Origin: an uncultured Deinococcales bacterium
Lineage (GTDB): Bacteria > Deinococcota > Deinococci > Deinococcales > JAAFIG01
Assembly: GCA_964247135.1 (NCBI GenBank)
Contig: CAXTTL010000033.1
Span: forward strand, 1-28,216
Length of the DNA stretch: 28,216 nucleotides
Direction of reading: 5' to 3'
Part shown: positions 1-28,216 of the stretch, piece after piece
Numbering within the stretch: the stretch's first letter is position 1
Layout: each line of letters opens with the position of its first letter
Position numbers and translations under genes: made by a program
Notes under the pieces: generated by a model
Told to the model about the DNA's origin: nothing
The model's database searches: none
Seen by the model: only the letters and a program-made list of their open reading frames with translations

Positions 1-708
1 TTGCTGCCCGACGCTCGAGCCGCCGTCCTCAACCGTTACTCGAGTTCCATACCCGCCGAGATTGGAACGTACCGCGTCAACAAAAACGCGATTGATTTTG
101 ATTGGTTGTTCTCTGGTAAGGAACACGACCCCGTTCACCTTTCGGGCAACGTCTTGCAACTCTCGATTTACGACCTCCAACAGACCGCCACGGACAACGA
201 AGCTCAAGCTGCCTTCGATACGATTTACCAAGCGCTTTTGAGCGACTCGGAAACCTACAACTCGAGGTTTGCGATTGGCAAGGCAAGCGATATGCATGAC
301 CGTCTGGACCCCAACCCAAACCGCCGCAATGCAGGAGCAACCGTCTACACTGGCGAGGGCTTGTACCTCTACGATTCGTTCAGCACTTCAGGCTGGGAGC
401 AACTGCCAAACGGTCAGATCAACGTTTACGACGGCTACTCTCGAGCCGACATGTGGTTGCTGCCCGACGGACGCGCCTGCAATCAAATTTGGTTGTGGCA
501 AGGTGTGGACATTCACGACCAGGCTCATGTCAAGCATATTTTGTCCTGGGGGCAATACAGTCTCACGCCTGGACAAAACGCACTCGAGGGGGATGTGGTG
601 AACATTGTGTTTGACAACGGTTTGAACGTGACTTACCGCATGGTGGGTGGGAGACGCTTCTTAAAATCGCGTGAAATCACCTATCACAATGCCGCACTTC
701 GTCAATAA
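1..708 (+). CDS. Hypothetical protein, probably 5'-truncated by the window edge
   Basis: Open frame from base 1 to TAA at 706-708; no family motif recognised. Confidence 0.7.
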   Translation: MLPDARAAVLNRYSSSIPAEIGTYRVNKNAIDFDWLFSGKEHDPVHLSGNVLQLSIYDLQQTATDNEAQAAFDTIYQALLSDSETYNSRFAIGKASDMHDRLDPNPNRRNAGATVYTGEGLYLYDSFSTSGWEQLPNGQINVYDGYSRADMWLLPDGRACNQIWLWQGVDIHDQAHVKHILSWGQYSLTPGQNALEGDVVNIVFDNGLNVTYRMVGGRRFLKSREITYHNAALRQ

Positions 709-792
709 GGGCGTATCAACTTTTTCTATTCGCTTGGCTTTGGCTTGCATTGCTTCGGTTTCTTTGCGCAATGCCAGAATCCGTTTAACCAA

Positions 793-833
793 CTCGAGAA
801 GGCATCAAAGTTTGCTTTTGATGCCTCCTCGAG
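793..833. terminator. Stem-loop between convergent genes, probable terminator
   Basis: CTCGAGAAGGCATCAAA-gtttgct-TTTGATGCCTCCTCGAG: 17-bp arms with one mismatch. Confidence 0.55.
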
Positions 834-893
834 AATCACTTTTTGAGGGTTTCAGGGTTTTTGCAAATAATTTGTTGAGTCCTCGTTCAAAAT

Positions 894-1552
894 TCAATCC
901 TCGAGCCAAGGAAAGCCGTTGCGGTTGCGTTCAATTCGTTGCCAGAGAATTTCATCGTTGTGTGCTCGAATTTGATGCAGAAAAGGAAAGTCATTGGCAT
1001 CGACAGCCACCCGAAACAAGGGCTTGACCTCGTGCAAACTTGCCCAATGATGCGCCTGTGTGTTGACGCCCTCGTGCGGTTCGGAAGGTTCTTGTTCAAA
1101 ACCATCTCGAGGCAAAACATAAACCCAACCGCTCCTAAAAGCCCCCTGTGTGAGCGCCTTGTCGGTCACACTAAAAAAGTAAATGTCGTGCTCGGGTTCA
1201 GTCTCGAGCCGCACCGCCGCATTGCTGATGCTCATCGGCACGGTGGGACGGTTGAGGATGGCAAAGAACATTGCCCAAATGCCATCCGAGGCGGCGTAGA
1301 CCGCTTTTCGGTTGCCAAACCAACCGACATCATTGGATTGTCGAGGCTCGAACAAGCTGATGTTTTGGTCGCCAGTGCCGTGCATCAAATACTTTTTGGT
1401 TTGGTTCAGCCAGATCAAAAACGCCCAAGTCGGAACTGGCAAGCTTGGTGCTAAACCCGTCTTTAAGGCTTCGGTCAAGCACAACTCGAGTTCTGGCACA
1501 AAAGGCTCGAGGTCAAATGTGGGCGCGTGAGCCAATACGACTCGAGTTTCAT
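894..1552 (-). pseudogene. Conserved-type hypothetical protein with an apparent 1-nt frameshift near the 5' end (pseudogene or sequence error)
   Basis: Main frame carries LMHGTGD, FEPRQSND and GNRKAVYAASDGIWAMFFAI. A TATGTT-6nt-ATG start at 1552 gives MKLESYWLTRP in another frame, which joins the main frame if one base is added to the run at 1521-1523. Confidence 0.6.
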
Positions 1553-1609
1553 GCCAAAAACATAGCATCTTTGGTGAAGAAAAACGTGGTGATACGTACT
1601 GATTTTATT

Positions 1610-2170
1610 TCAAATCCAAGCCTGAAAAACCCGTAATTTCGCCGTACTGCGGGGCAAATGATGTTTTTCAAGTTGATCTAAAAACTCGAGTGCAGTCATG
1701 GCAGGGCGTACCAATTGCGCCCGTTGCTTTTTGAGGGCAATCAGCACTTGGTTTAAGTTGTTTTCGAGCACCTCGAGCAAGAAATCATCGGGATGAACGG
1801 CTTGCAGACCATGCGGTTTTAATGTTTTGGCTGGAAAATCTTTGAGGTTTAAGGTCACAATTCTGCTTGCCTGACAAGCAATTGCCGCTGCAAGAATATG
1901 CTGATCATTGGGATCAGGTAACACAAAGCTCGAGATCAAATGTTCAAAGTCTGTCACCAGCGCATTGCGGGCATGAAGGTTCATCAAATCAACCACCCGA
2001 TTCCACTGTTCAGGTGTAGAACCAGGGCGTTCAGTCAAAATGTTTCGAGTCCATTCGGCATGAATCATTGCCGTCCATCTGGCATCAATGGCTTCCTCGA
2101 GAATCAACCGCATCCAAAGATCACGCAGCATTGCCGAATACAGTACGCAGGCATCCAGCACGACGATCAA
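1610..2170 (-). CDS. PIN domain protein (PIN_3/VapC50-like), putative toxin
   Basis: N-terminal VVLDACVLY, LPDPNDQHILAAAI, IVTLNLKDFP; overlaps the upstream HTH gene by 4 nt. Confidence 0.9.
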   Translation of the reverse strand: MIVVLDACVLYSAMLRDLWMRLILEEAIDARWTAMIHAEWTRNILTERPGSTPEQWNRVVDLMNLHARNALVTDFEHLISSFVLPDPNDQHILAAAIACQASRIVTLNLKDFPAKTLKPHGLQAVHPDDFLLEVLENNLNQVLIALKKQRAQLVRPAMTALEFLDQLEKHHLPRSTAKLRVFQAWI

Positions 2171-2577
2171 TCGTATAGCTCCATTTTTTGCTGCAACTGC
2201 GAAAGTTCATTCAGTGCCGCTTCGCGCTGCATTTTATGGAAATTTTTCAAGTCAAAAAAACGTACCCGTCGCTGATTCCCAACTTTATAAAACGGAATCA
2301 AACCTTGCTCGAGCAACTTGACCAAATGCGGACGCGAAACTTGCAACCAATCCGCTGCCTCTTGCGTGGTCAGTTCCCGATCTGCCGAACTGACTTGCAC
2401 CGCTTCACCTCGAGCGAAATGTTCAAACACTTCTTGAATCGCTTGACCAATCGCGCTGTTCACCTCGAGCTTTGGCAGGGTGACAGTATGATTTGCGCCT
2501 CGTGGTTGCTTGAAGGCTTGTAAACCTTTTAAGGCAAGGTCGGCATCGCTGGGTTGTGGTTTGATGATTTGCGTCAT
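2167..2577 (-). CDS. Excisionase-family (HTH_17) DNA-binding protein, putative antitoxin/autorepressor
   Basis: ELTTQEAADWLQVSRPHLVKLLEQGLIPFYKVGNQRRV and C-terminal LNELSQLQQKMELYD; ATG at 2577 preferred over TTG at 2592. Confidence 0.88.
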   Translation of the reverse strand: MTQIIKPQPSDADLALKGLQAFKQPRGANHTVTLPKLEVNSAIGQAIQEVFEHFARGEAVQVSSADRELTTQEAADWLQVSRPHLVKLLEQGLIPFYKVGNQRRVRFFDLKNFHKMQREAALNELSQLQQKMELYD

Positions 2578-2593
2578 GGTCTCTCGAGACAAG

Positions 2594-2611
2594 AATACTC
2601 GAAATACTCGA
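2594..2611. promoter_or_regulatory. Tandem 9-bp direct repeat overlapping a -10 hexamer; putative operator of the HTH-PIN operon
   Basis: AATACTCGA-AATACTCGA; on the minus strand it overlaps TATTCT, 14 nt upstream of the ATG at 2577. Confidence 0.55.
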
Positions 2612-2628
2612 AAAAGAAAAGGGGAAAT

Positions 2629-3120
2629 TTAAGATTTTGGCACTTTAATTTCAATCGATTTTGGAAACTCAGGCGCAAGTTTTGAAACCTCGAGTTCGCC
2701 TTGCACATCATAAAAGCACATGTTCCCATTCAGATCACAAGTCCAAACCTCGAGCGCCCCACGTTCAAAATACAATTTTCGCTTGCTCGAAATTTCTTTT
2801 TGGGTATTGCTTGGTGAGATGATTTCCGCGCAGAGTTCTGGTGCTTCGGACAAATCGAGTTCGTCGCGGTGCGCGTTAAAAAAAGCATAAGACGACCAGG
2901 CGACATCTGGCACTTTCACGCCTTTGCGGGTCGCAATTGCGGTTTCAGAACTGGTGATACCATTGGTCAGAAATTGCTCAATCAATTTTGCAAGGCGTGA
3001 CTGATAAATGCCGTGAATGTATTTTGTGGGACTCATGACCACCTGCCCGAATTCGTTGGTTTCAATTTTGAACGGTAAATTGGCTAAATCTTTGTTGTTC
3101 ACAATTTCTTGCCAGGTCAT
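2629..3120 (-). CDS. Uma2 (DUF820) family PD-(D/E)XK endonuclease-like protein
   Basis: VVMSP..H, VKVPDVAW, APELCAEIISPSNT, KRKLYFERGALEVW; SD GAGGTG upstream. Confidence 0.9.
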   Translation of the reverse strand: MTWQEIVNNKDLANLPFKIETNEFGQVVMSPTKYIHGIYQSRLAKLIEQFLTNGITSSETAIATRKGVKVPDVAWSSYAFFNAHRDELDLSEAPELCAEIISPSNTQKEISSKRKLYFERGALEVWTCDLNGNMCFYDVQGELEVSKLAPEFPKSIEIKVPKS

Positions 3121-3175
3121 TAGCTCACCTCTTGGGGCAGTGTAGCAAAGTCTTGCAAAAAGAAAAGCTCGAGGT

Positions 3176-3637
3176 TTAGGTTTTGGAAAGTTCGACCCAA
3201 CTCGAAATATCTCGAGATTCGATACTGGTTTTCACTTCGGAAATCAAATGGTCTAAAGTTGCCAGTAAATCCTTCGATGATTTTAGGTCAGTATTTTCGG
3301 GAAACGAGTGAATCTCAATTTCGTAGTCAAGATCGTGTCTGGCAACAAAGATTCCACCGTAAACCCGCCAATCTTCAATTTCACGACAGCAAGTCATATC
3401 CCACGTAACCACATCATTGCTTTCGTTTTTGATCGAAATTGACTCATTCCAGAAAAAAGGTTGACGTTCATATTGGGTTATGGAATGGTGATTTGTAACA
3501 AATTCTGCTCCGAATTTTTTCTTTTGAGCACTAACAAAATTACGAATTTCTACACAAATTTGAGCAACAGATATGAGTACCAGAAACCCAGGATCGTTTC
3601 CGTCTAAAGAATGCACTTTCAGGCTGATTTCATCCAC
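3176..3637 (-). CDS. Hypothetical protein (AT-rich)
   Basis: 153-aa ORF filling the gap between gatC and the Uma2 gene on the same strand; no motif recognised. Confidence 0.65.
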   Translation of the reverse strand: MDEISLKVHSLDGNDPGFLVLISVAQICVEIRNFVSAQKKKFGAEFVTNHHSITQYERQPFFWNESISIKNESNDVVTWDMTCCREIEDWRVYGGIFVARHDLDYEIEIHSFPENTDLKSSKDLLATLDHLISEVKTSIESRDISSWVELSKT

Positions 3638-3654
3638 AAATAATCCTCGAGATT

Positions 3655-3948
3655 CTATTCAACCGTCCGTGGCACTTGAAAAAACCCATCGTTCACTTCC
3701 ACACCAACCGCCAACGCCTCCGCTTGCGACATGGCAACTTCGGCAACATCTTCACGCAAAACATTCACCAACGCCACAGGGCGCGGCATTTCGGGCAGTC
3801 CCTCGAGATTTAATTTTTGCAATTGATCGAAACTCCCTAAAATCTTGTTGATCTCGGTTTTGGCTCGAGCCGTCTCCACGTCGTCCATCTCGAGTCTGGC
3901 GAGTTTTTTGAGATGCTGCATTTCCGCGTCGCTGATGGCTTCAGTCAT
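3655..3948 (-). CDS. gatC: Asp-tRNA(Asn)/Glu-tRNA(Gln) amidotransferase subunit C
   Basis: ISDAEMQHLKKLARLE, NVLREDV, DGFFQVPRTVE; TAAACT 6 nt before the ATG. Confidence 0.95.
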   Translation of the reverse strand: MTEAISDAEMQHLKKLARLEMDDVETARAKTEINKILGSFDQLQKLNLEGLPEMPRPVALVNVLREDVAEVAMSQAEALAVGVEVNDGFFQVPRTVE

Positions 3949-3957
3949 AAGATCAGT

Positions 3958-5370
3958 TTAACCGTTTTCCGCCTCGAGTTTCATCCTGTCCCAAAGCGCT
4001 TGCACATGCTCGAGTTCGGTGGGCATTGCGCCAATGCTGACGCGCACCATCCAGCGACCCTCGAGTTTGGCGGGTGTAAGGTACGCGAATCCCGATTGGT
4101 TGATGCGTTCGACCCAAGAGGACGTGTGACGCTCGAGTGCCTCGCCGTGAAGTCCTGCGGGTTCGTGGCGAACGCAGACGGTTTGCAGTGGTACGGGCGC
4201 GAGTCGAACCCAGTTTGGAGCGGCATCAACTTGAGTGGCGAGCCATTGGGCGTTTTTCATGTCGCGGCGCAACCGTTCGCGCAGTCCCTCGAGTCCGACG
4301 CTGCGAATCAAAAACCAGAGTTTGAAGGCTCGAGCGCGACGACCGAGCGGAATACCCCAATCGCGGTAATTTTTGGCTTGCCCGTCTTGCGAAGTTTGCA
4401 GGTAGCTGGGGTTGGTGCTCATGACGCGAATCAAATGCTGGCTGTCACGCACGTAGTACAAAGTGCAGTCAAAGGTTGCGCCGAGCCATTTGTGCGGGTT
4501 TAAAACAATCGAATCGGCGTTTTCAACTCCAGCCCACAAAGGCTGGCATTCGGGAACGATCATGGCGCTACCCGCCATTGCCGCATCCACGTGCAACCAA
4601 ACCCCGTATTTCGCCGCGATGCTCGAGAGTGGCGTCAGTGGGTCGATGGCGGTGCTGGTGGTCGTCCCGATGGAAGCCACAATCGCGCAAGGGACATTCC
4701 CAAGCTCGAGGTCGGCTCGGATGGCTGCCTCGAGTGCTTCTGGACGCATGGCAAAATGCTGGTCAATGTCCACGCTGCGCAAATTCTCGCGTCCGAACCC
4801 TGCCAGCAGCACGGCTTTTTCGATGCTCGAGTGGGCTTGACTCGAGACGTAAACAATCAAGGGTTTGCTTTCGGCTTGAATCCCGCCACGGTTCAGGCTG
4901 TAATGGCTGGTTCGTTCTCGAGCGCAAAGAAGCGCCAACAAACTGGTACTCGAGGCGGTGTCTTGAATCACGCCCTGCCACTCGCTCGAGAGTCCGAGCG
5001 CTTGGCGCATCCAGTCGGTCATGACCTCCTCGAGTTCGGTCAGCAGCGGGCTGGATTGCCAGTTGAGTCCCAACTGTCCCAAACCAGAACTGACCAGATC
5101 ACCCAGCACGCCTTCCAAGCTCGAGTTGGCTGGAAAGTACGCAAAATAGCGCGGGTGTTGAAAATGGGTCAGCGCGGGTTTGAGTTTCTCGAGGTCAGCC
5201 ACCAAACCCGCCAGATGATCGCCTTTTTCGGGAGCGCTTGGCGAAAACTGCGCTTGAACCTCGCCAGGTTTGAGGCTCGAGACGACGGGCAGGGTTTCGA
5301 TCTGGTCACGGTAATTGGCGATGAAGTCAATCAGTTCGTGACCGAGCGTGCGGAATTCGTCGGTGGTCAT
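3958..5370 (-). CDS. PLP-dependent aromatic-L-amino-acid decarboxylase (group II decarboxylase)
   Basis: THFQHPRYFAYFP, WQSSPLLTELEE, QAHSSIEKA, WLHVDAAMAG, NPHKWL (PLP lysine), YRDWGIPLGRR. Confidence 0.93.
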   Translation of the reverse strand: MTTDEFRTLGHELIDFIANYRDQIETLPVVSSLKPGEVQAQFSPSAPEKGDHLAGLVADLEKLKPALTHFQHPRYFAYFPANSSLEGVLGDLVSSGLGQLGLNWQSSPLLTELEEVMTDWMRQALGLSSEWQGVIQDTASSTSLLALLCARERTSHYSLNRGGIQAESKPLIVYVSSQAHSSIEKAVLLAGFGRENLRSVDIDQHFAMRPEALEAAIRADLELGNVPCAIVASIGTTTSTAIDPLTPLSSIAAKYGVWLHVDAAMAGSAMIVPECQPLWAGVENADSIVLNPHKWLGATFDCTLYYVRDSQHLIRVMSTNPSYLQTSQDGQAKNYRDWGIPLGRRARAFKLWFLIRSVGLEGLRERLRRDMKNAQWLATQVDAAPNWVRLAPVPLQTVCVRHEPAGLHGEALERHTSSWVERINQSGFAYLTPAKLEGRWMVRVSIGAMPTELEHVQALWDRMKLEAENG

Positions 5371-5391
5371 GATGGAAGTATAAACTGAAGA

Positions 5392-6075
5392 TCAGTCTTG
5401 CTCGAGTTGTACTGTTTGGGTTTTTAATTTTGGTTTTTGGTCTGGGTGTTCCAAATTTTGAAGCTCCATATTGCGAAATTTGAGGATGCGAAAATAATCG
5501 CTTCGCATGTTGAGAATGGCAAATATTGCCAGAAAACCGTATAAAATAATTCTGTTAAAATTTGGAATGCTTAAACCACTGAGCGAAAGTAGGACAACAA
5601 GCCCGATTGCAACCAGAATGTAAATACTATTATCAATCCAGAATTTCCAGATAAAATAGCGGTAAATTGTTATTCTATTTGGAATTATTTGATTTAGAAT
5701 GGGAATCAAAAGGACGAAGAACAACTTCCCTCGTTCTCTTGGAAAGAAGTAGTACAATGCAGAGCCGCCAATAATTATTTCAATCCATGACTTCCATGTT
5801 TTTTTACTGTTTCTTTCAAAGGAATGCTGTTCTAAAGATGTCGTGTATTTTTTCTCTAATTTTTTAGCAGCTTTCTGAGGACTGCCAAACTCGAGTATCG
5901 CTAATTGCTCGGCTTCAATTTCGTTTCGTCCATCGCTGATAAAACGATTGGTCAAATGTTCATAATGTCGGGTTACTGTTTCCCGTACTTTATTGCCTGA
6001 ATCATCAGAAAGTGAACTGGTGGCATCGTTAAGCCAGGTTTGCAGGGTGTACGTTTTAGGCGTTTTATTGAACAT
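5392..6075 (-). CDS. Membrane protein with N-terminal permease-prefix/HAAS-like domain
   Basis: LQTWLNDAT...HYE...EAEQLAILEFGSPQKAAKKL followed by about four hydrophobic segments; AT-rich; ATG at 6075 chosen. Confidence 0.7.
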   Translation of the reverse strand: MFNKTPKTYTLQTWLNDATSSLSDDSGNKVRETVTRHYEHLTNRFISDGRNEIEAEQLAILEFGSPQKAAKKLEKKYTTSLEQHSFERNSKKTWKSWIEIIIGGSALYYFFPRERGKLFFVLLIPILNQIIPNRITIYRYFIWKFWIDNSIYILVAIGLVVLLSLSGLSIPNFNRIILYGFLAIFAILNMRSDYFRILKFRNMELQNLEHPDQKPKLKTQTVQLEQD

Positions 6076-6162
6076 GACTTCTCGAAAAAGTTGGCAATGA
6101 CAACACAAATTCTAAAGCATCAAGCCCCTGTATGCTCGAGAAGATCAATTCCATTTTGACTT

Positions 6163-7161
6163 TTATTGCGGTGCGAGTTCTCGAGCCAGTTGGCTGAATT
6201 GATCGGTGACTTCATCCAGCACACTGACGCGCGGGATTGGATTTTCGGTCACTTCGCGCACCAAAAACGGACCTGGGTCAATGGGTGCGTCGTTCAAACG
6301 AACCTCGTAATGCAGGTGCGGTCCGGTGGAATTTCCGGTTGAGCCGACCAACCCAATTTCATCTCCAACCAGCACTTCCTGCCCAACGCTGACTTCGATG
6401 CTCGAGAGATGTCCGAACAAGGTTTTAAGACCGTTGCCATGATCGACAATCACGTGCAAGCCGTAACCGATGCTCGACATGCCCGCCGTGACGACCACGC
6501 CGTTGGCGGTGGCGGCAATCGGTGTGCCCATCGCGGTGGCAATGTCCCAACCGGTGTGGCGTTGTAATTTGCGATTGAACGGATTTAAACGGTAACCAAA
6601 GGTCGAACTGATGTCACCGGAGAGTGGCCAGCCGCTCGGGATCGAGTCCAAATCTGCGCCTCGAGCTTCTAAGGATGCAATGCTTTGCTCACCCAGGCGG
6701 TTTAACCCGACGATGGCGACGTTGGTGGTTTGTTGATTGCTGACATCCTCGAGCGGCTGCGTTTCAGTTTGGGCGCTGCCCACGCTTTGCAGGCGTTGCA
6801 ACTCGCCTTTAAAACTGCCCACCTTGCTCGAGAGTTCGTAGGCATAAGCTTGGGTTTTGACTTTTTGGATTTGCTCGAGTTTGATTTTGGAGGTTAAAGC
6901 CTCGATCTTGGTTTTCGCCTCGAGTTTTAAACTTTGGACTTGATTGGCTTTTGCCAGCATTTTGAGGCTTAAAAAACTGTTTTGCGCTTTTAAACGCTCA
7001 ATTTTTTCGAGTGCAATCAAGTTTTTTTGTTGGGCATCAAGGGCGATCAAACCGACGGCAGCCATGCCAGCCAACGCCAGCAGCGCCACGATCAAACGGT
7101 TTCGCGCCAGGTTTTGCGGGGTTTTAATGGTTTCTGATAACGGAATCTCGAGCACGCCCAA
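6163..7161 (-). CDS. M23 family metallopeptidase (peptidoglycan hydrolase) with N-terminal TM anchor and coiled coil
   Basis: HTGWD (HxxxD), TLFGHLS, GSTGNSTGPHLHYEVR; start uncertain (TTG 7161 or GTG 7155). Confidence 0.93.
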   Translation of the reverse strand: MGVLEIPLSETIKTPQNLARNRLIVALLALAGMAAVGLIALDAQQKNLIALEKIERLKAQNSFLSLKMLAKANQVQSLKLEAKTKIEALTSKIKLEQIQKVKTQAYAYELSSKVGSFKGELQRLQSVGSAQTETQPLEDVSNQQTTNVAIVGLNRLGEQSIASLEARGADLDSIPSGWPLSGDISSTFGYRLNPFNRKLQRHTGWDIATAMGTPIAATANGVVVTAGMSSIGYGLHVIVDHGNGLKTLFGHLSSIEVSVGQEVLVGDEIGLVGSTGNSTGPHLHYEVRLNDAPIDPGPFLVREVTENPIPRVSVLDEVTDQFSQLARELAPQ

Positions 7162-7209
7162 CAGGATACAAGATTTTCATGCGTCAAGGTTAGAAACTTC
7201 GCATTGGCG

Positions 7210-7695
7210 TTAATGCTCGTGTCGAACCCCGCCCTCGCCGTGAACATGTCCATGCTCGAGTTCGCTGGGTTCGGCGGGTCGAACGTTCAGGATTTTGATG
7301 TGATATTCGAGGTTTTTGCCAGCAAATTCGTGGTTAAAATCCACGGTCACCGTGTCCTGCTCGAGTTTGATGACCCGAGCCACCAGCGGTTTGCCGTGTT
7401 CGTCTTGGGTGTAAAAACTTGCTCCGAGCGCGAGGTTGGTGTTTTTTGGAAAGTCCGATTTTTGGGCGCTATACAGTTTGCTCGGGTCATACACGCCGTA
7501 AGCATTCTCGAGGGTTGCTGTGAATTCTTGAGCTTCTTCGTGTCCAATCAGCAGTTCCTCAAGTCCAACGGGCAGACTTTTGGCGTGTCCCATCAAAATG
7601 GTTTGCACTTCACCCTCGAGCGACCTTTCAACAACTTTGCCATCGATCATTAAGCTCCACTCGAGCTTCACCACGCTGCCCTCCGTAATCTTCAT
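7210..7695 (-). CDS. slyD: FKBP-type peptidyl-prolyl isomerase / metallochaperone SlyD
   Basis: GLEELLIG, AYGVYDP, VTVDFNHEFAGKNLEY, His-rich tail ELEHGHVHGEGGVRHEH. Confidence 0.9.
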   Translation of the reverse strand: MKITEGSVVKLEWSLMIDGKVVERSLEGEVQTILMGHAKSLPVGLEELLIGHEEAQEFTATLENAYGVYDPSKLYSAQKSDFPKNTNLALGASFYTQDEHGKPLVARVIKLEQDTVTVDFNHEFAGKNLEYHIKILNVRPAEPSELEHGHVHGEGGVRHEH

Positions 7696-7764
7696 GCCCC
7701 AATTTACCTCGAGCTTGTGGGTAAAGTCCTAAACTTGGGGTTGTGAAAACGGTAACATCAAGCC

Positions 7765-8727: not shown

Positions 8728-8737
8728 GGCTCGAGTT

Positions 8738-9094: not shown

Positions 9095-9123
9095 GATCCG
9101 AGTGTAACATGCCAACTTAAGCA

Positions 9124-9151
9124 AAAAAATGCGCCCAACGGCGCATTTTTT
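9124..9151. terminator. Intrinsic terminator downstream of infC (bidirectional form)
   Basis: AAAAAATGCGCC-caac-GGCGCATTTTTT: perfect stem with A/T tracts on both sides. Confidence 0.85.
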
Positions 9152-9165
9152 GTTTTGAACTAGAA

Positions 9166-9819: not shown

Positions 9820-9960
9820 CTGCCTTTTTCTGCTCGAGCAGCCTTTTTGTCTGCGCGGCGTTATCAGTATACCCGTAGTCTGGCTTTTTCAGTAGTGTTT
9901 TAAGCTGGATTTACCCGAGGTTTGCTTGAAAGCCTTGTATGACGTGGTACAGTCGGGGTC

Positions 9961-11720: not shown

Positions 11721-11724
11721 AATT

Positions 11725-16525: not shown

Positions 16526-16903
16526 ATGCCCGAGTACCAACCCATCAAAACCAAACTCGGCATTTTACGCTCGAGGGACGCGCTGCACCTGGAAGACCTC
16601 GAGTTCAAACCGCTCGAGAAAATTCTGATTTTAACAGGCGTGCTCGATGCCCGTCACAGCAGCTCACACCTCGAGCAAGATTTGCACTTCACCTTGCGGT
16701 TTTTGAGCGTGGTCGCGCTCGAGGTCACCGATTTGGATTCGTTTCACGGCGATCTCTCGAGCAGCTTTGACGTGGTGCATCACTCGAGCTGGTTCGAGAA
16801 CGCTGGCGGCAACGTCATGGCGGGGCACAAGCATTACCAGATCATTGAACGTCATCATATTCTGGGGATCATCGCCGACGGTTTTAAACTCGAGTTGCAG
16901 TAA
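16526..16903 (+). CDS. Hypothetical protein
   Basis: 125-aa ORF with TAAACT 6 nt before the ATG; its stop abuts the stop of the convergent gene. Confidence 0.75.
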   Translation: MPEYQPIKTKLGILRSRDALHLEDLEFKPLEKILILTGVLDARHSSSHLEQDLHFTLRFLSVVALEVTDLDSFHGDLSSSFDVVHHSSWFENAGGNVMAGHKHYQIIERHHILGIIADGFKLELQ

Positions 16904-18798: not shown

Positions 18799-18825
18799 GC
18801 CTTAGTATGCCACTGAAATTTGGTG

Positions 18826-19752: not shown

Positions 19753-19767
19753 GATTTCCTCCAAGTT

Positions 19768-21117: not shown

Positions 21118-21141
21118 GGCGGTTAAGTGTACCGCGAAACC

Positions 21142-23826
21142 CTATTTCGCGTCGTACCAAGAATCCCCAACGCCCACCCCAACCCCAAGCGGCACCTCGA
21201 GCGTGAAAGCATTGTTCATGGTGTCCTCAACAATTTTACTGACTGCTTCAACGTGCTCGGTTGGACTCTCGAGCACCAGTTCGTCATGGACTTGCAAAAG
21301 CATTCTGGCGCCGAACGGTTCGAGTTGAGGCTCGAGGTAAATCATGGCGTACTTGATGATGCCCGCGCTCGTGCCTTGAATCGGCATGTTGATCGCGGCG
21401 CGTTCGGCGGCTTCGCGCACCATAAAAACCTTCGAGTTGATTTCTGGGATGTAACGCCGACGGTGCAATAAATCTTCAACATAACCATGTTCGTGACAAA
21501 AGGCTTTGGTGCGCTCGAGATAACCGTTGATGCCCGGGTAGGCTTCAAAGTATTTGGCAATAAAATCTTTGGCGGTCTCGTATGAAATGCCCTCGTCGCG
21601 GCTGAGGCGATGTGCCCCCATGCCGTACAAAATCCCGTAATTGACGGCTTTTGCGCCGCTTCGTTGGTCGCTGGTGACATCCTCGAGCGCAATGCCCAGA
21701 ATGCCGGCGGCGGTGCGGCGGTGAATGTCCTCGTTCAGCCTAAAACTCTCGAGCAGCGCGGGTTCCTTGGTGATGTGCGCCAGAATTCGCAGTTCAATCT
21801 GGCTGTAATCGGCGCTGATGAGTTTCATGCCCTCACTGGCAATAAAGCCCTTGCGCAGCTCACGTCCGACCTCGGTGCGTATCGGAATGTTTTGCAGGTT
21901 TGGATTCAGGCTCGAGATGCGCCCCGTCGCCGTGCCAACCTGGGAATAGGTGGTGTGCAAACGGTTGGTTTTAGGGTTGACCATCAAAGGCAGCGGGTCG
22001 AGGTACGTGCCCTTGAGTTTGGCAATCTCGCGGTACTCGAGGATTTTGGGAATGATCGCGTGTTCGTCCACCAGCCCCTCGAGCACGCTGGCGGCGGTGC
22101 TGCGTTTGCCCGTGCCTTTGGTTTTTTTGCCCGATGCCAGTTGCAGTTTGTCGTACAAGATTTTCTCGAGCTGATCCCGCGAGTTCAGGTTAAATTCTTC
22201 GCCCGACAATGCCCAGATGTCAAGCTCGAGTTCGTGAATGCGGGTTTGAAATTGATCTGAGAGTGCTTTGAATTGCGCGGCATCAATCCGAATACCGGTC
22301 GCCTCGATTCTGGCAAGCACTTTGCTGGTCGGAATCTCGAGGTTTTCGTACAGCTTGTTTTGCTCATCCGTGAACATCAGCGCGAGTTTTTGAATCAGTG
22401 TGGCGCTGGCGGCGGCTTGGCTTGCGGCGTCTTTTGCCCATTCATGCTCGAGGTAACGCTTGGAAATGATGCTGGCGCTGACGTTGGTGGTATCCAGCGC
22501 GTAAGCCATCAACAGCGGATCGTCCCCTGGCTCGAGGTTGACGCCGTTCATGATGGCGTGTACCGCCAAGGATTTCGCATCAAACGCGTGGACTTCACTC
22601 AAGCCTGCAAAAATCTCGAGGCTGGGATTTTCGGCTTCACGCACGCCGTTCTCAAAGTTGGGGTCGGCATAAGCCAGCGCCTTCAAATCCGCGCTCGAGG
22701 CGAAATCGCTCGAGAGGGTGAAGCCCCATACTGCATTCGCCTCGGGTTTTTGCCACTCGAGCCTGGTAAAAGTTTGCTCAACTTTGGCTGGCACCGCCTC
22801 GAGTTCAATCGCACCCAAATTCATGTCTTTGATCAAGCTGAAAAACTCGAGTTCGCTCAGCGCTTCACGCAGTCCGTCTTGCGGTGCAAAAACGTTGGCT
22901 TTGACAAAATCCGCCTCGAAATCCATGTCGGTCACGATCCTCGAGAGTTCTTTGCTCATTAAAACATTTTCGAAAGAATCCCGAATTTTTTGTGCATCTT
23001 TGGCAGGTTCTATCGTGTCCAAATTCGCCAAAATATAATCGAGCGAACCGTACTTTTCAAGGAGCTTCTGCGCCCCCTTTGGACCAATCCCCCGCGCCCC
23101 AGGAATGTTGTCACTCGAGTCGCCGGTCAAAGAACGGTAATCGACCCATTGATCGACGCGCACGCCGTACTTCTCGAGCACTTCGGCTGGTCCAACTTCG
23201 CGGTCATCGCTGGCGATCACCTTGACGTTCTCGGAAAGCAGTTGGTAGGCGTCACGGTCACTGGTTAAGATTCGCACCGCGATGCCCTCAGCTTCGGCTC
23301 GGGTTGCCAGCGTGCCGATCACATCGTCCGCCTCGTAACCTGGTTCTTCAAGGCGCATCAAACCCATCAGGTCAACAATTTTTTTGATCTTATGGACTTG
23401 CTCGTGCAAGTCGTCGGGCGTGTCGGCGCGACCTGCCTTGTAATTCTCGAACGCCTCATGCCTGAAGGTTTTCACGGGCGGGTCAAACACCACGATCACC
23501 GCGCCCTCTCGAGTTCCCTTTTTGACACCGTCTTTGACGTGACGCATAACGGTTTTGAGAAAGCCGTAAATCGCCTGAACGGGTTCGCCTTTGGAAGTCG
23601 TCAAACTGCCCGAGGAGCGTTGCAAGGCAAAGTACGAACGGTACGCCAGCGCATGACCGTCGATCAGGGTCACCCGTTTGGGTTTGGTGCTGCCGACCAC
23701 TTTTGGCGCAGGAATCTCGAGGTTCTCTGATGGATCAGGAATCCCGTGTTCTGCGAGGTAAATGTCATTTTCAGATTCGATTTGTTGCTCATTTTCGGGC
23801 GCATCGAACAGATTGGGTTGGCTCAT
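21142..23826 (-). CDS. polA: DNA polymerase I (Deinococcus/Thermus type)
   Basis: 5' nuclease LIDGHALAYRSYFA, GYEADDVIGTL, GDSSDNIPG; polymerase motifs DYSQIELRILAH, R...KAVNYGILYG, LLQVHDEL. Confidence 0.98.
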   Translation of the reverse strand: MSQPNLFDAPENEQQIESENDIYLAEHGIPDPSENLEIPAPKVVGSTKPKRVTLIDGHALAYRSYFALQRSSGSLTTSKGEPVQAIYGFLKTVMRHVKDGVKKGTREGAVIVVFDPPVKTFRHEAFENYKAGRADTPDDLHEQVHKIKKIVDLMGLMRLEEPGYEADDVIGTLATRAEAEGIAVRILTSDRDAYQLLSENVKVIASDDREVGPAEVLEKYGVRVDQWVDYRSLTGDSSDNIPGARGIGPKGAQKLLEKYGSLDYILANLDTIEPAKDAQKIRDSFENVLMSKELSRIVTDMDFEADFVKANVFAPQDGLREALSELEFFSLIKDMNLGAIELEAVPAKVEQTFTRLEWQKPEANAVWGFTLSSDFASSADLKALAYADPNFENGVREAENPSLEIFAGLSEVHAFDAKSLAVHAIMNGVNLEPGDDPLLMAYALDTTNVSASIISKRYLEHEWAKDAASQAAASATLIQKLALMFTDEQNKLYENLEIPTSKVLARIEATGIRIDAAQFKALSDQFQTRIHELELDIWALSGEEFNLNSRDQLEKILYDKLQLASGKKTKGTGKRSTAASVLEGLVDEHAIIPKILEYREIAKLKGTYLDPLPLMVNPKTNRLHTTYSQVGTATGRISSLNPNLQNIPIRTEVGRELRKGFIASEGMKLISADYSQIELRILAHITKEPALLESFRLNEDIHRRTAAGILGIALEDVTSDQRSGAKAVNYGILYGMGAHRLSRDEGISYETAKDFIAKYFEAYPGINGYLERTKAFCHEHGYVEDLLHRRRYIPEINSKVFMVREAAERAAINMPIQGTSAGIIKYAMIYLEPQLEPFGARMLLQVHDELVLESPTEHVEAVSKIVEDTMNNAFTLEVPLGVGVGVGDSWYDAK

Positions 23827-23844
23827 ATCGCAATTCTACCCGAA

Positions 23845-23861
23845 TTCTGTTATGGGCGAAA
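23845..23861. promoter_or_regulatory. Candidate radiation/desiccation response motif (RDRM, DdrO operator) in the polA promoter
   Basis: 17-mer TTCTGTTATGGGCGAAA lying 6 nt upstream of the polA -10 hexamer (TAGAAT, 23833-23838 on the minus strand). Confidence 0.6.
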
Positions 23862-23872
23862 CGCTTGGGTCT

Positions 23873-24298
23873 TCATTCTTTGGATTTGACCGCGCCACGT
23901 CCCAAATGCGCCAGTGATTCTGCCAGACGCCACTCGCGGACCGTCCACAGCCTGTTCAGTTTGTGGACATCACCTTGCTTGTAACCCGCACGGTGCAAAC
24001 TGACCCAACCGCGATCCTCGTTTAAATCCGAACTGAGTTCGGTCAGCGGATTCGGATGCCCAATCCAAACCACCGAATGCGCCCGCAGCGCCGCATGAAT
24101 TTTCGGAAAAACCTCCTCGAGTTCCAAACGCGTCTGACAAAAAGCGATCACCACGTCAAAGCGTCCCTCGAGCCTTAAAAAGACTTCCACCCGTGGCGGT
24201 AGGGGTGAAAGTGATTCATAAAAACCATCTGGAGGACTCAGCAAACCAACCAAAGAACCCTCATGGATACCCAGTGTTTCGACCAATTGAACGGACAT
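23873..24298 (-). CDS. Conserved hypothetical protein (DUF3052-like)
   Basis: LGIHEG...PPDGF, FDVVIAF, VVWIGHP, SDLNED pattern; TAAAAT 6 nt before the ATG. Confidence 0.7.
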   Translation of the reverse strand: MSVQLVETLGIHEGSLVGLLSPPDGFYESLSPLPPRVEVFLRLEGRFDVVIAFCQTRLELEEVFPKIHAALRAHSVVWIGHPNPLTELSSDLNEDRGWVSLHRAGYKQGDVHKLNRLWTVREWRLAESLAHLGRGAVKSKE

Positions 24299-24317
24299 GG
24301 CAGCATTTTAAGGAGTC

Positions 24318-25319
24318 TTACACTTCAAGTGCAAATACTTTCAGTGGAGACTCGAGGTGATCAAACGTCGGGAAGTCAATTTTGGACTGCCCCAAACTCT
24401 CGAGCAGGTTAAACCCCCGACCGGCGCGTTTTAAACCCGTTTTAATTTGTGCGTAAAAAGCCCGTTTGGACAGTTGGGCGTTGTTGCAACACGCCAGCAA
24501 CAAACCGTCTGGCGCGACAATGCTGGCGGCAAGTTCCACAAGTTCGTCGTAATTGGCTGTCGCCGAAAAACGCATGTGTTTTGATGTGGCAAAACTCGGC
24601 GGGTCAAGAATCAGCACATCAAACTTATCCTCACGCCTCGAGAAACGGTGAAGCCAGTCAAAAACATCGCCCGAAATAAAATCAAAACGCTTCGGCTCGA
24701 GTTTATTCAGACGGTAATTTTCCTCGCCCCAGTCCAGCACCCGCCGCGAAAGGTCAAGGTTTGCGGCTCGAGCGGCGCCGTTTAAACTGGCGACCAAACC
24801 AAAGCCGCAAGTGTAAGCAAAGGTGTTCAAAACGGTTTTTCCAGCCACGTGATGCTTGAGCCAAGCCCTCGGTTCGCGCATGTCCAAAAACAAACCCACG
24901 CTTAAATCCCCACCAGGACGAATCAAATACTTTACGCCATGCTCGAGAATCGTGACTTCGTCGGTTCGTTCGCCCCAAGCTGGAACGTCGGGCGCGAGTG
25001 AATCTCTGGCAACATTCGCCACATGCCGCGCCTCTTTTGGGCGGCGTTTGAGATAAATCGAAATCGGTTGGAATGTTGCTGCCAGCACCTCGAGCAAGAC
25101 GTTTTCTTGCTTTTGGGAAAGTTCAGTGTACAAACTCGCCACCAAAACACCAGCAAAAAAATCCACACTCAAATCTGTAATTTCATCCGCGCTCGAGTTC
25201 ACCAAGCGGTATGCCGTCAAGCTCGGGTTTTGCTCGAGTGACACACGCTTGGCTCGAGATTGAATCAGCAATTGCTCGAGTTTTGAGGCGTTGTTTAAAA
25301 GCGCGGTTAAATCTGGCAC
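24318..25319 (-). CDS. Class I SAM-dependent rRNA methyltransferase (RlmI/RlmK-like)
   Basis: AYRLVN, GLFLDMRE, VLNTFAYTCGF, FDVLILDPPSF; start reassigned to GTG 25319 (TATTCT 6 nt upstream). Confidence 0.9.
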   Translation of the reverse strand: MPDLTALLNNASKLEQLLIQSRAKRVSLEQNPSLTAYRLVNSSADEITDLSVDFFAGVLVASLYTELSQKQENVLLEVLAATFQPISIYLKRRPKEARHVANVARDSLAPDVPAWGERTDEVTILEHGVKYLIRPGGDLSVGLFLDMREPRAWLKHHVAGKTVLNTFAYTCGFGLVASLNGAARAANLDLSRRVLDWGEENYRLNKLEPKRFDFISGDVFDWLHRFSRREDKFDVLILDPPSFATSKHMRFSATANYDELVELAASIVAPDGLLLACCNNAQLSKRAFYAQIKTGLKRAGRGFNLLESLGQSKIDFPTFDHLESPLKVFALEV

Positions 25320-25359
25320 GACTCGAGAATAACTCAGATTTTGCGGGTATACTTCCTGC

Positions 25360-25554
25360 ATGGACTGGAAAATCAATCTCGCAGACCCAGATTTTGAACC
25401 CAGCGACGAGCAATTGCAAGAATTGATGCGTCGTGCATTTGCGCATCTTACTGAAGAAGACGAATTGCGATTGCGTCTGATGCGAGAACGCATTGCATTA
25501 GGGCGCGTTGAATTGTTAAAGCAACTTCGTCAAGAAACGGCACATTCAGCTTGA
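25360..25554 (+). CDS. Small helical protein, putative antitoxin partner of the zeta-like ATPase
   Basis: TATACT 6 nt before the ATG; its stop overlaps the TTG start of the next gene. Confidence 0.7.
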   Translation: MDWKINLADPDFEPSDEQLQELMRRAFAHLTEEDELRLRLMRERIALGRVELLKQLRQETAHSA

Positions 25555-26171
25555 AACCCGTTTTGCTCATGATCGCTGGACCAAACGGTTCAGGTAAAAC
25601 CACCGTTACTGTTTCACTGCGCCGCGATCAATGGAGCGAAGGTGTCGAGTACATCAACCCTGATGACATTGCCAAAGAAAAATTTGGCGACTGGAATTCT
25701 CGAGATGCGATTTTAAGTGCTGCAAACTGGGCAGAAGCCAGACGCGAAGAATTGCTCGAGCAACGCGCAGGAATTGCGTTTGAAACCGTATTTTCAGCAC
25801 CTGATAAAGTAAATTTCTTGCAACGTGCAAAACGGGCGGGTTACTTTTTGCGCGTTTTTTTTGTCAGTACCAACGACCCACGCATCAACGCTTCTCGAGT
25901 CATGAGGCGGGTTATGAATGGTGGACATACCGTGCCGCTCGAGAAAATCGTCAGTCGTTATGACAAGTCAATGGTCAATCTTGTCGCCGCGATTGAGATT
26001 GCAGATCGGGTTTACATTTACGACAATTCCATTGAAAACACCGAAGCAACTCTTTGCGCTCGAGTTTCTGACGGAATGATTCGCAAAATCTATGTTGATC
26101 TACCCGATTGGGTCACAGATGCCATTGAGGAGTTACCACAGCATCCAAAATTTGAAGATGCTCGAACTTAA
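25551..26171 (+). CDS. Zeta-toxin-like P-loop ATPase/kinase
   Basis: IAGPNGSGKTT, YINPDDIA, IAFETVFS, RVMNGGHTVPLEKIVSRY, IYDNS. Confidence 0.88.
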   Translation: MKPVLLMIAGPNGSGKTTVTVSLRRDQWSEGVEYINPDDIAKEKFGDWNSRDAILSAANWAEARREELLEQRAGIAFETVFSAPDKVNFLQRAKRAGYFLRVFFVSTNDPRINASRVMRRVMNGGHTVPLEKIVSRYDKSMVNLVAAIEIADRVYIYDNSIENTEATLCARVSDGMIRKIYVDLPDWVTDAIEELPQHPKFEDART

Positions 26172-26227
26172 GATTCTGGAATTCAAGAATTCCTAAACGG
26201 GAACGAAAACCACTCAATCCTCGTACA

Positions 26228-26509
26228 ATGCCCCAGAGTATGACCACCTGCCCCTTTTGCGCCTCGAGCCTTCCCGAACACGCCATCACCTGCCCAAGTT
26301 GCGGTGCGACCCTGGCAGGTTTGCAACTCGAGCTTGGGTCAATGCTGCTGGGCAAGTACAAACTCGAGCATCCGCCATCACGCGCATGGAATCTCGAGCG
26401 CAAGGCATTAGACTTCTTTTGAAAGGTGGTGCGTGCATATGATTCAGTTTCTTTCGCAGTCCAGCTTTTTCGACTCGAGCTTCCCAAATACTTTGAGGAG
26501 TACCTATGA
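26228..26509 (+). pseudogene. Remnant: zinc-ribbon N-terminus of a probable Ser/Thr kinase joined to an unrelated decayed segment
   Basis: CPFC...CPSCG, then LELGSMLLGKYKLE, where a Gly-rich kinase loop would be expected but is absent; in-frame TGA at 26420-26422, after which the frame stays open to 26509. Confidence 0.55.
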
Positions 26510-26567
26510 AACGATTGAATTGTGTAGTGTCATGCCACCAAAAATCCTTTAACACTTCGAGGTTGTT

Positions 26568-27851
26568 TTGACCCCGCTCGAGTTTAGAAGTGCGCTCGAG
26601 AAAGGGTTGGGACGAGCGATTTTGTACTTGCAGAAGAGTGACCCAGCACCGTTTTTTGATGTGATTCTCGATGCGAGTGTCAGAAATACGGTTTACGATA
26701 AGCATTATTTCGGTGCAAATAAAGCCGAATACTTGCTCGAGATTTTTGAATTGACAGGGCGATCTGATGAATTGATTGAGGCAATGCTAAAAGCCTATGA
26801 CGATTTTGATTTGGAAGAACGTCCTGATACCAAATTGATTATGGAGATTGCCAAACGCGGCAATGCCAAAGCACGTCGGCTTGTTAAACAGGATTTTCTG
26901 ATTGAACTCGACGAGAAATCAAAATATGCAGGCGGAGATTTAATCAAAGTTGGTGGCGCGAGTGCTTTCTTGTACGTTGCAAAACGTTTGGGACGTTTGG
27001 TAAAAACTGATCCAGCTTTTCAACCTGTGTCGTACTATTTGCGTGATCTGCGTTCACTTGATCTCAAGGAAAACAGTGAACCTAAACTTCCAGCCATTCT
27101 CGAGAAAGCACGGCTCGAAAACTCAGATGTTGACACACACTTGACTTATATTGAAGCGCAGCTAGTCAAACCAGAGCGGAAATTTGTTCGATACGAGCAA
27201 CTATCGTATCCAGAAACAAAAGCGCGGATTGAAGACCCACAGGATACTTCTTCGGTTGGATATTCCTGGTGGGGCGAATATGCTTCGTATCAAGAATTAA
27301 GAATGGCAGCAAATGATCTTTTGTTAGAAACACAGCCTGAGCGAATACGTCTGTATCTCGAAGTTTTTCGAGATCGTTGCTTTCCTTTGGGCTACACAAA
27401 ACTGATGCCTTTCATAGACCATGAAGACCCAAAAGTTGTTAGAGCAGCAATGCAAGCTCTAGGAAGCATAAAGCATAAAACCATTCGAGTCGAAGCGCTT
27501 AGACGTTTAACTTCATCTGAATGGGCTTGGGAAGCGCTTTGGATGTTACGCCGAAATTATCTTCCCGAGGACGCGAAACTGTTTACGGAAATCATTCAAG
27601 AATCTAACGATGAAGAAATTGAATTACTTGGACATCAAATGCACAGGGTACTTGAGGAAAACTGTAGTCCTGAAGCGCTTGAGCCAATCCAAGCCATTTA
27701 CGAGTCTGGTTCTTGCGTTGCGCTCCGAGCCAGTGTCGTAGAACTTCTGCAAGAACATAATCTTTTGCCAGATTGGATGCTTGAGGAATGCTGTTGGGAT
27801 AGTTACCAACACTTTCGTAAAAAAGCTCGAACTTGGGCAAACTATCCTTAA
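26568..27851 (+). CDS. Hypothetical alpha-helical protein with a HEAT-like repeat
   Basis: 427-aa ORF, AT-richer than its neighbours; LMPFIDHEDPKVVRAAMQALGSI is HEAT-like. Confidence 0.75.
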   Translation: MTPLEFRSALEKGLGRAILYLQKSDPAPFFDVILDASVRNTVYDKHYFGANKAEYLLEIFELTGRSDELIEAMLKAYDDFDLEERPDTKLIMEIAKRGNAKARRLVKQDFLIELDEKSKYAGGDLIKVGGASAFLYVAKRLGRLVKTDPAFQPVSYYLRDLRSLDLKENSEPKLPAILEKARLENSDVDTHLTYIEAQLVKPERKFVRYEQLSYPETKARIEDPQDTSSVGYSWWGEYASYQELRMAANDLLLETQPERIRLYLEVFRDRCFPLGYTKLMPFIDHEDPKVVRAAMQALGSIKHKTIRVEALRRLTSSEWAWEALWMLRRNYLPEDAKLFTEIIQESNDEEIELLGHQMHRVLEENCSPEALEPIQAIYESGSCVALRASVVELLQEHNLLPDWMLEECCWDSYQHFRKKARTWANYP

Positions 27852-27974
27852 AACCTTGCATCAACATAATCTCGAGATTGGAACTATTCAGTCTTGAGGT
27901 TTTCTTTTATCCTCCAAAAATCCCGTCCCAGTCTCGAGATTCCCACCCTCCCCAACACCGTGCGGCAAAAGCCC

Positions 27975-28003
27975 TTGCCTGAATGCAACCTTTGGTGTAC
28001 ACT
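27975..28003 (+). promoter_or_regulatory. Sigma70-type promoter for tuf
   Basis: TTGCCT-17 nt-TACACT. Confidence 0.6.
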
Positions 28004-28161
28004 TCCAAAGTTTCTGCCTCGGGTTTCTCGAGACGTTAGCACCACATCTCGCTCTGAAAGTTTACTTTCGGGCACATTGACAAGCGGCATTAGGATTTCG
28101 CGCCCAAGATTGGGCATAGCTCGAGTGCGTCATGTACTCGAGGGATTGAGGAGACGCAGTT

Positions 28162-28216
28162 ATGGCGAAGGGTACTTTCGAGCGCACCAAACCACACGTC
28201 AACGTCGGCACCATCG
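28162..28216 (+). CDS. tuf: Elongation factor Tu, N-terminal fragment (runs off the window; absent from the ORF track)
   Basis: MAKGTFERTKPHVNVGTI, preceded by SD GAGGAG at 28148-28153. Confidence 0.97.
   Translation, partial: MAKGTFERTKPHVNVGTI

Follow-up and report, generated by a model that had tools for sequence, protein, structure and literature searches.

CTCGAG is a highly iterated palindrome in a family of Deinococcota and is maintained by a bias acting on DNA

We identified the hexamer CTCGAG as a highly iterated palindrome (HIP) in the genome of an uncultured Deinococcales bacterium, beginning with a 28,216-bp stretch of its DNA (contig CAXTTL010000033.1, hereafter the window). It is a DNA word spread through an entire lineage, and neither a mobile repeat nor a protein motif. 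Every potential site is subject to a bias at the DNA level, which keeps the word near saturation and preserves existing copies. HIPs have so far been described only in cyanobacteria, and CTCGAG in the Deinococcota represents a second, denser case with a different word. The role of HIPs is debated, with methyl-directed repair, chromosome structure and DNA uptake all under discussion.

CTCGAG occurs 215 times in the window (7.6 per kb), which holds ordinary housekeeping genes and the spacers between them. One hundred dinucleotide-preserving shuffles gave a mean of 5.19 copies (s.d. 2.01, maximum 10); none reached 215, and the excess is 41-fold. The initial annotation, made from the letters of the window, had counted 49 copies starting in the first 6 kb and eight within a 378-bp open reading frame (ORF), and both tallies were exact on recounting.

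The genome carrying the window (labelled G000, with the window as its contig C33; other G-numbers denote Deinococcota genomes compared with it) is assembled as 5,091,702 bp in 386 contigs, of which contig C1 measures 115.6 kb, with a GC content of 52.7% and 84% completeness. It contains 33,925 copies of CTCGAG, corresponding to 1 per 150 bp or 6,660 per Mb. This is by far the commonest hexamer in the genome; TTTAAA, the next palindrome, has 3,272 copies. The excess is 24.7-fold over the order-0 expectation, 35.2-fold over order 1 and 14.4-fold over order 2, and a fourth-order Markov ranking is uninformative because the expectation is set mainly by the sub-words of CTCGAG itself. Each of the 297 contigs of 5 kb or more has 2.6–10.5 sites/kb and none of the 89 shorter contigs is without it, so that the enrichment is not confined to the contig on which it was first noticed. 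The flanking bases are nearly free, as had been proposed from the window (G at −1 and C at +1 in 38.6% of sites), and the commonest 10-mer context has 478 copies, with no dominant longer context. We therefore regard the bare hexamer as the iterated unit, rather than a part of some dispersed repeat.

ORFs were called crudely (at least 120 aa, greedily by length), giving 4,225 ORFs that cover 84% of the genome, and the fraction outside them therefore includes short genes. Synonymous codons were then shuffled inside each ORF over 10 rounds, preserving the protein and the codon usage of each gene. The shuffled ORFs contained 3,939 ± 70 sites versus 27,959 observed, a 7-fold excess, and the enrichment thus survives when both the amino acids and the codon usage are kept. 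The comparison is conservative, since CTCGAG itself inflates the codon frequencies retained in the shuffle. The sites fall in all three frames (17,072, 4,420 and 6,467 in frames 0, 1 and 2) and are at least as dense outside called ORFs (7.4/kb) as inside (6.5/kb), in agreement with the HIP-like behaviour suggested for the window. These data bear on the possibility that the word is a by-product of codon or dipeptide usage, of the avoidance of other palindromes, or of assembly. Such a reading could draw on the 61% of ORF sites that lie in the Leu-Glu frame, and on the many other palindromes that are strongly avoided in this genome, GAGCTC being absent altogether. However, away from the word its codons are minority choices, CTC accounting for 15.1% of Leu codons without a following Glu and GAG for 32.6% of Glu codons without a preceding Leu. 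The enrichment also recurs in all 18 other genomes examined from the same family, and on every contig. The by-product or artefact explanation is refuted, and we give it practically no weight.

The influence of the word extends to the proteome. CTCGAG encodes 17,072 of the 22,198 Leu-Glu pairs in G000 (76.9%, with approximately 5% expected). Leu-Glu is the most over-represented dipeptide (observed/expected ratio 2.39), while Glu-Leu stands at 1.02; Ser-Ser, which is another reading frame of the word, stands at 1.63. Approximately 12,900 Leu-Glu pairs exceed the prediction from amino-acid frequencies, and in this sense CTCGAG has reshaped the proteome. Orthologues of the DNA polymerase I (Pol I) encoded in the window contain only 0–4 sites in non-enriched genomes, including one at GC 0.535 with 2 sites and 10 Leu-Glu pairs, and carry residues other than Leu-Glu (ID, IQ, ED, MA) at about half of the 19 in-frame positions. 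The bias at the DNA level has pulled protein sequences toward Leu-Glu.

Evidence of maintenance comes from five genomes of the same genus that align to approximately 17 kb of the window at 85–86% identity; the pairs were pooled and are not independent. Copies of CTCGAG in G000 are intact in the other genome in 76–81% of cases versus 42–45% for control hexamers. The third base of CTC was kept in 341 of 364 codons inside the word versus 200 of 313 outside it, and that of GAG in 354 of 371 versus 239 of 385, which corresponds to 94–95% kept inside and 62–64% outside. The other reading frames behave similarly: the third base was kept in 63 of 69 CGA codons inside the word (81 of 133 outside) and in 142 of 164 TCG codons (155 of 225 outside). 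CTCGAG is actively maintained, as indicated by this excess conservation of synonymous bases. The initial annotation had proposed a methylation-, repair- or uptake-linked system that generates or selects the site; a process that reads the sequence fits the synonymous conservation, but the methyltransferase part of the proposal found no support, as described below. Among 123 positions covered in all six genomes, the word was present in six, five, four, three, two and one of them at 47, 32, 11, 7, 10 and 16 positions, respectively. Copies broken by a single change were mostly due to transitions (27, 28 and 19 at the three half-site positions), with no excess at cytosines. One public sequencing run, considered as a source of recent gains and losses, contained 6% of the words and was set aside.

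The bias appears to be weak at each site. The one-off neighbours of CTCGAG have 1,383–4,350 copies each, and the logarithm of the ratio of perfect word to neighbour is 2.75–3.9. In a rough two-state reading, we infer a scaled per-site advantage of approximately 2.8–3.9, or about 3.

Intervals between neighbouring sites follow a nearly exponential distribution (mean 148, median 108, coefficient of variation 0.96), the largest being 2,644 bp. There is a deficit of gaps below 20 bp, a mild excess at 50–150 bp and a deficit at 300–1000 bp, making the spacing slightly more even than random. The only period detected between 30 and 600 bp is the 3-bp period of coding sequence, with no helical or nucleosome-like period.

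Density climbs with the GC content of genes: those below 0.40 carry 1.4/kb and those above 0.60 carry 7.6/kb. Among 1,999 ORFs of 900 nt or more, only 15 are without CTCGAG, with a mean GC of 0.40; the longest CTCGAG-free stretches, in which 18 ORFs were annotated, are likewise mostly low in GC. Thus CTCGAG is a signature of resident DNA, and low-GC accessory DNA lacks it. The 18 annotated ORFs include accessory or defence-type genes (an O-antigen ligase, STAND/AAA NTPases, a reverse transcriptase-protease fusion, an AbiEii-like ATPase and proteins of unknown function), together with ordinary-looking ones (three solute-binding proteins, a GH30 glycosidase and two peptidases). The fusion, a reverse transcriptase joined to a trypsin-like protease (C4:51606-53234), lies in a 1.9-kb stretch of GC 0.355 without CTCGAG and is likely an imported defence-type gene. 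The 66 tRNA genes (5,129 nt) hold 10 copies, which is below the genome average and well above chance for structural RNAs. Three primer-like patterns did not locate rRNA genes in the G000 assembly.

We surveyed CTCGAG per kb in 301 genomes of the phylum, with the reversed word as control. The family of the window, f1 (11 genomes, G000 included), has 4.3–6.8 sites per kb, and all 18 other f1 genomes examined by the 8-mer form of the word are enriched. Genera g13–g15, family f5, have about 1.4–3.5 per kb, mostly 2–3.5, with the control word at 0.07–0.9. Family f2 ranges from 0.3 to 2.8 per kb, and two f3 genomes, G253 and G196, reach 7.0 and 3.6 per kb. Genus g7 (100 genomes) has only 0.01–0.27 per kb, and genus g9 lies at about 0.9, on a par with its control word. 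The enrichment is therefore common to the family f1 genomes examined and not to the whole phylum, being patchy across the 301 genomes and missing from the two largest genera. Several families that differ in GC content are enriched in one and the same word, an indication that its reader is conserved. G253 and G197 share a genus label and differ greatly in density (7.0 versus 0.3 sites/kb); we dropped them as a close contrast pair since their Pol I sequences are only 52.8% identical and the Pol I tree was unresolved. Nothing claimed here draws on G265, a genome flagged as unpublished.

The leading model for HIPs, that of Elhai, would explain CTCGAG by a methyl-directed ratchet, in which an orphan CTCGAG methyltransferase marks the sites and a methylation-sensing mismatch repair uses the methylated intact strand as template, so that sites are created and restored. 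Passages of Elhai 2015 (PMC4390886) report cyanobacterial HIPs and alternate HIPs together with a methyltransferase of matching specificity. Methylation of CTCGAG also exists in nature: as 5-methylcytosine (m5C) in Halorubrum (PMC8112702) and, with TCGA, as a trait common to one hot-spring host-phage group, whose phylum is not named in the passages available (preprint 10.64898/2026.06.24.734251). In addition, G197, which lacks the enrichment, has almost no DNA methyltransferases.

Gene content, however, does not follow this model. We scanned G000, G253, G197, G196, G009 and G114 for the methyltransferase families PF01555 (beta-class), PF00145 (m5C), PF02384, PF07669 and PF02086 (D12), and G011, G007, G008, G005 and G013 for the same families minus PF07669; all but G197 are enriched, giving ten enriched genomes. 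No orthogroup from the five families is common to the ten, although enzymes of other families would be missed, and no orphan methyltransferase of these families co-occurring with the enrichment was found. PF01555 was not detected in G011 (one contig, 94% complete, 4.6 sites/kb) or G196, PF00145 was not detected in G008, and PF02086 was not detected in G196. The only m5C gene of G196 lies within 4 kb that hold a single CTCGAG.

G000 itself encodes two m5C methyltransferases, four beta-class N6/N4 enzymes (one split over two contig ends), one D12 enzyme, two MmeI-like, one HsdM-like and one SNF2-fused. All except the large or atypical ones adjoin a nuclease of another specificity. These nucleases are of NgoPII type (expected target GGCC; hexamers containing it have 1–125 copies), Eco29kI type (CCGCGG, 11 copies), PvuII type (CAGCTG, 15 copies), SacI-like (GAGCTC, 0 copies), MvaI/BcnI type and, by a weak match, NotI-like. 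C-to-T decay at either cytosine of the word (27 and 19 cases) is no commoner than the other transition (28), which speaks against m5C. Further, DmtA and DmtC fell below the significance threshold in a 2026 study of HIP1 correlations (PMC13756078). We consider a methyl-directed origin unlikely. From these negatives, the reader does not appear to be a recognizable mobile restriction-modification (R-M) methyltransferase; a conserved host factor, varying in activity or specificity from one lineage of the Deinococcota to another, is the likelier candidate.

CTCGAG is also the target of XhoI/PaeR7I-type R-M systems, to which the initial annotation had pointed, yet R-M targets are normally avoided and not enriched. 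The XhoI-family nuclease (PF04555) was found in 4 of the 301 genomes and in 0 of 11 in family f1. Its partner, a 340–354-aa beta-class methyltransferase, has no close homologue in G000 (best match 25% identical), and we rejected the family and its partner as the cause. The nuclease/methyltransferase pairs lie in four f4/f2 genomes (L138–L142: G084, G139, G021 and G104, broken in the last), where CTCGAG is not depleted (0.7–2.0 per kb).

Other methyltransferases were rejected in turn. The split beta-class enzyme (C4:1-397 and C207:3-827) is patchy, with orthologues of at least 74% identity in 6 of 19 f1 genomes, G000 included. Its halves are 75–80% identical to one complete 344-aa gene of G009, indicating an assembly break inside the gene. 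The 514-aa gamma-class enzyme of G009 has no homologue in G000 and is not orthologous to those of G114 or G253. A D12 enzyme of approximately 285 aa in G011, G007 and G005 occupies three different genomic contexts and is absent from G000. HsdM-like genes belong to several unrelated lineages, and a 372/319-aa pair in G196 and G253 corresponds to a Trm14/RlmL-type RNA methyltransferase.

A SacI-like nuclease with a D12 methyltransferase (C320:1061-2155 and C320:2152-2985) drew attention because its methyltransferase shares 74.5% identity with an enzyme of the enriched G253. The nuclease is present in only 12 of 301 genomes, four of them from non-enriched g7, and was not found in five enriched f1 genomes. 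The pair explains the avoidance of GAGCTC in G000, and not the enrichment of CTCGAG. GAGCTC, the palindrome with swapped half-sites, has 0 copies in 5.09 Mb, and the tandem CTCGAGCTCGAG is likewise absent. In the phylum as a whole, the most CTCGAG-rich genomes tend to have the least GAGCTC, even where the SacI-like nuclease was not found (for example G009, G007, G207 and G300), a trend given here without a statistical test.

Alternatively, CTCGAG may be a signal for DNA uptake or transformation, such that the competence machinery or a later step would prefer DNA carrying it, and the word would accumulate by molecular drive and mark the DNA of the clade. The word is rare in imported-looking DNA and intrudes into proteins at variable positions, as does the uptake signal sequence (USS) of the Pasteurellaceae. 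The ComEC channel was detected by its domain in 30 of the 31 genomes examined, and in 18 of 19 in family f1 counting G000. It is, however, equally present in lineages without the enrichment, and we rejected it as the cause. Six bases offer little specificity, and the uptake sequences known so far exceed 6 bp and are not palindromic. At 1 per 150 bp, with 77% of possible Leu-Glu positions used, the density is far above one signal per imported fragment. This near saturation at the codon level, as well as near-exponential spacing with no period but 3 and no gap above 2.6 kb, fits a process acting on many independent sites better than one signal per fragment. HIP1 was reported to make transformation more efficient, depending on homology and methylation (passages of bioRxiv 10.1101/2024.09.10.611283), and was proposed as an uptake sequence (PMC13756078). 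Overall, an uptake signal seems to us an improbable cause of the enrichment.

The word could instead be a dense functional site selected for its overall density, for example because an end-processing nuclease reads it as a Chi-like 'self' signal in both directions or because a nucleoid protein binds it. The slightly even spacing and the lack of the word in foreign DNA would fit such a role, and selection on distribution is favoured for HIP1 in passages of Xu et al. 2018 (PMC5861425), which also describe a periodic distribution of HIP1 at the 10–90 kb scale. AddAB-like (PDDEXK_1) pairs were identified in long ORFs of enriched f1 genomes, but also in the non-enriched genus g9, and were rejected as candidates since they are present whether or not CTCGAG is enriched. 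The lack of a helical or nucleosome-like period argues against a site of this kind, and no candidate binding protein was found. We judge selection for density to be quite unlikely.

The explanation that we favour, tentatively and at somewhat less than an even chance, is biased conversion or correction toward intact CTCGAG during recombination or repair. The density fits a per-site process, and this leads us to prefer it. The palindrome would be read by a putative dimeric host protein. The decisive step would be which allele survives recombination or repair, with the intact word favoured, so each copy would spread and be restored independently. Imported DNA would arrive without the word and acquire it slowly.

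Several observations weigh against biased conversion or correction. Among the 123 positions, those lacking the word in a single genome (32, apparent losses at the tips of the genus) outnumber those having it in a single genome (16, apparent gains), which argues against a simple equilibrium. A slow net decay in place of an active drive could produce this pattern, as could tip variants that are mildly deleterious. The conservation evidence covers about 17 kb in five pooled, non-independent pairs. The one-off neighbours, compared with a median hexamer of 1,849 copies, are not depleted and so leave no footprint of the kind expected from Vsr. No reader protein was identified among the genes examined, and the mechanism is accordingly one that we infer. 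The failure to find a methyltransferase is not the same as its absence, as G000 is 84% complete, several relatives are fragmented and enzymes beyond the five Pfam families would be missed. Finally, for HIP1, passages of Xu et al. 2018 (PMC5861425) attribute conservation to selection for function and not to replenishment by biased repair.

A broader version of this explanation is that conserved, methylation-independent host machinery reads the palindrome in recombination or repair, and that the trait is ancient in the Deinococcota and was lost in the two best-studied genera. We regard this as a speculative and rather doubtful proposal. If true, the loss in those two genera would explain why the trait escaped notice; HIPs would have arisen convergently, as a general feature of bacteria, with a cause other than a cognate methyltransferase; and the Deinococcota would offer a second, independent system for the 30-year-old HIP1 problem.

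Several known systems resemble CTCGAG in part. The DNA uptake sequence (DUS) of Neisseria and the USS of the Pasteurellaceae are 9–12 bp long, not palindromic and present at approximately 1 per kb, with an uptake bias that has been shown experimentally. Like them, CTCGAG is over-represented, marks the DNA of its own lineage, is seldom seen in imported DNA, is tolerated in genes and could accumulate by drive. In the Dcm/Vsr system, very-short-patch repair at CCWGG raises the frequency of its own target word, needs an m5C methyltransferase and depletes a T-containing neighbour. A sequence-specific repair bias that raises its own word would be the point in common; the neighbours of CTCGAG are not depleted, however, and one enriched genome (G008) lacks any detected m5C methyltransferase. 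Chi is asymmetric and oriented with replication. As a dense short word that tells own from foreign DNA in end processing, it would be a possible parallel, but CTCGAG is palindromic and the distribution of AddAB-like genes does not follow it.

The closest likeness is to HIP1 (GCGATCGC). Both are short palindromes, hyper-abundant in coding and non-coding DNA, conserved beyond codon conservation and lineage-wide with exceptions (HIP1 as described in passages of PMC4390886 and PMC5861425). CTCGAG differs in its length of 6 bp rather than 8, in its phylum and in its density (6,660 versus 300–2,700 copies per Mb, the latter from passages of PMC4390886). HIP1 contains the sites of two widespread orphan methyltransferases; no enzyme matching CTCGAG was found in the genomes scanned here. 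Certain cyanobacterial lineages have an alternate HIP, another palindrome standing in for HIP1, and CTCGAG is likewise a different word in this role, but passages of Elhai 2015 (PMC4390886) describe a matching methyltransferase whenever such a word is frequent; we looked for one and found none. Of the features by which HIPs are recognized, CTCGAG shows genome-wide excess, presence in coding and non-coding DNA beyond codon usage, and conservation across genomes. A matching methyltransferase (Elhai 2015) was not found, with incomplete assemblies and unscanned families leaving doubt. A full-text search, whose coverage excludes most subscription journals and supplements, yielded no publication describing hyper-abundant CTCGAG, nor one on a HIP outside cyanobacteria. 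Neither the passages available from Elhai 2015 (PMC4390886) nor the 2026 GBE paper (PMC13756078) mentions CTCGAG or Deinococcus, and no passage of Xu et al. 2018 (PMC5861425) among those available concerns non-cyanobacterial genomes.

A second case in an unrelated phylum permits comparative tests that one phylum cannot offer. The range of CTCGAG among related genera, from absence to 7 per kb, makes it the right material for phylogenetic profiling, and the genomes examined lack a detected cognate methyltransferase of the sort that the leading HIP model requires. The word is also a strong native-DNA signature of the clade, useful for binning and for spotting imported genes, and its density matters when DNA from this clade is cut with XhoI or TaqI. 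The present analysis adds a map of the word across the phylum, an estimate of its strength per site, a description of its spacing, the association of word-free stretches with foreign DNA, and the negative result on methyltransferases and XhoI-type systems.

Features of the window that illustrate the distribution of the word are given in Table 1. The presence of a Taq-type DNA polymerase I fits the affiliation with the Deinococcota.

Table 1. CTCGAG sites in selected features of the window
Feature	Position	Strand	CTCGAG sites	Remarks
Whole window	1..28216		215	5.19 expected
Spacer without ORF of at least 120 aa	3638..3957		4	Sites at 3646, 3802, 3864, 3889
PLP-dependent decarboxylase gene	3958..5370	-	18	
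Spacer between IF-3 and GGDEF genes, without ORF of at least 120 aa	9820..10436		4	Sites at 9833, 10159, 10233, 10370
125-aa ORF, no Pfam match	16526..16903	+	8	378 bp; densest stretch flagged
Taq-type DNA polymerase I gene	21142..23826	-	25	19 of 22 Leu-Glu pairs are CTCGAG

Two further segments of the window deserve mention. At 1610-3120, a gene with a PIN domain, an HTH gene and a nuclease-like gene of the Uma2 family stand together where site density is below average and GC is lower (0.452 over 2001-4000). This segment looks like a small accessory island. Elsewhere, the expansion of Uma2/DUF820 genes was rejected as a candidate cause of the enrichment, as it is also large in non-enriched g9 and small in enriched G253. 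At 25551-26171, an ORF for a zeta-toxin/AAA_33-type kinase stands beside a 124-aa ORF without known family, and the two may form a toxin-antitoxin pair.

G000 also contains four complete-looking type II R-M cassettes: C14:36040-37936 (NgoPII type), C178:2930-4752 (Eco29kI type), C36:19235-21059 (PvuII type) and C189:4077-5632 (MvaI/BcnI type). The first three match palindromes that are nearly absent from the genome. The MvaI/BcnI cassette holds 1 CTCGAG in 1.56 kb and looks like a recent arrival. Beside the gene for an inosine-uridine nucleoside hydrolase, G000 carries the NgoPII-type system (C14:35074-37936) and G005 a different D12 methyltransferase (locus L241, C6), suggesting that this slot is a hot spot for the exchange of R-M genes.

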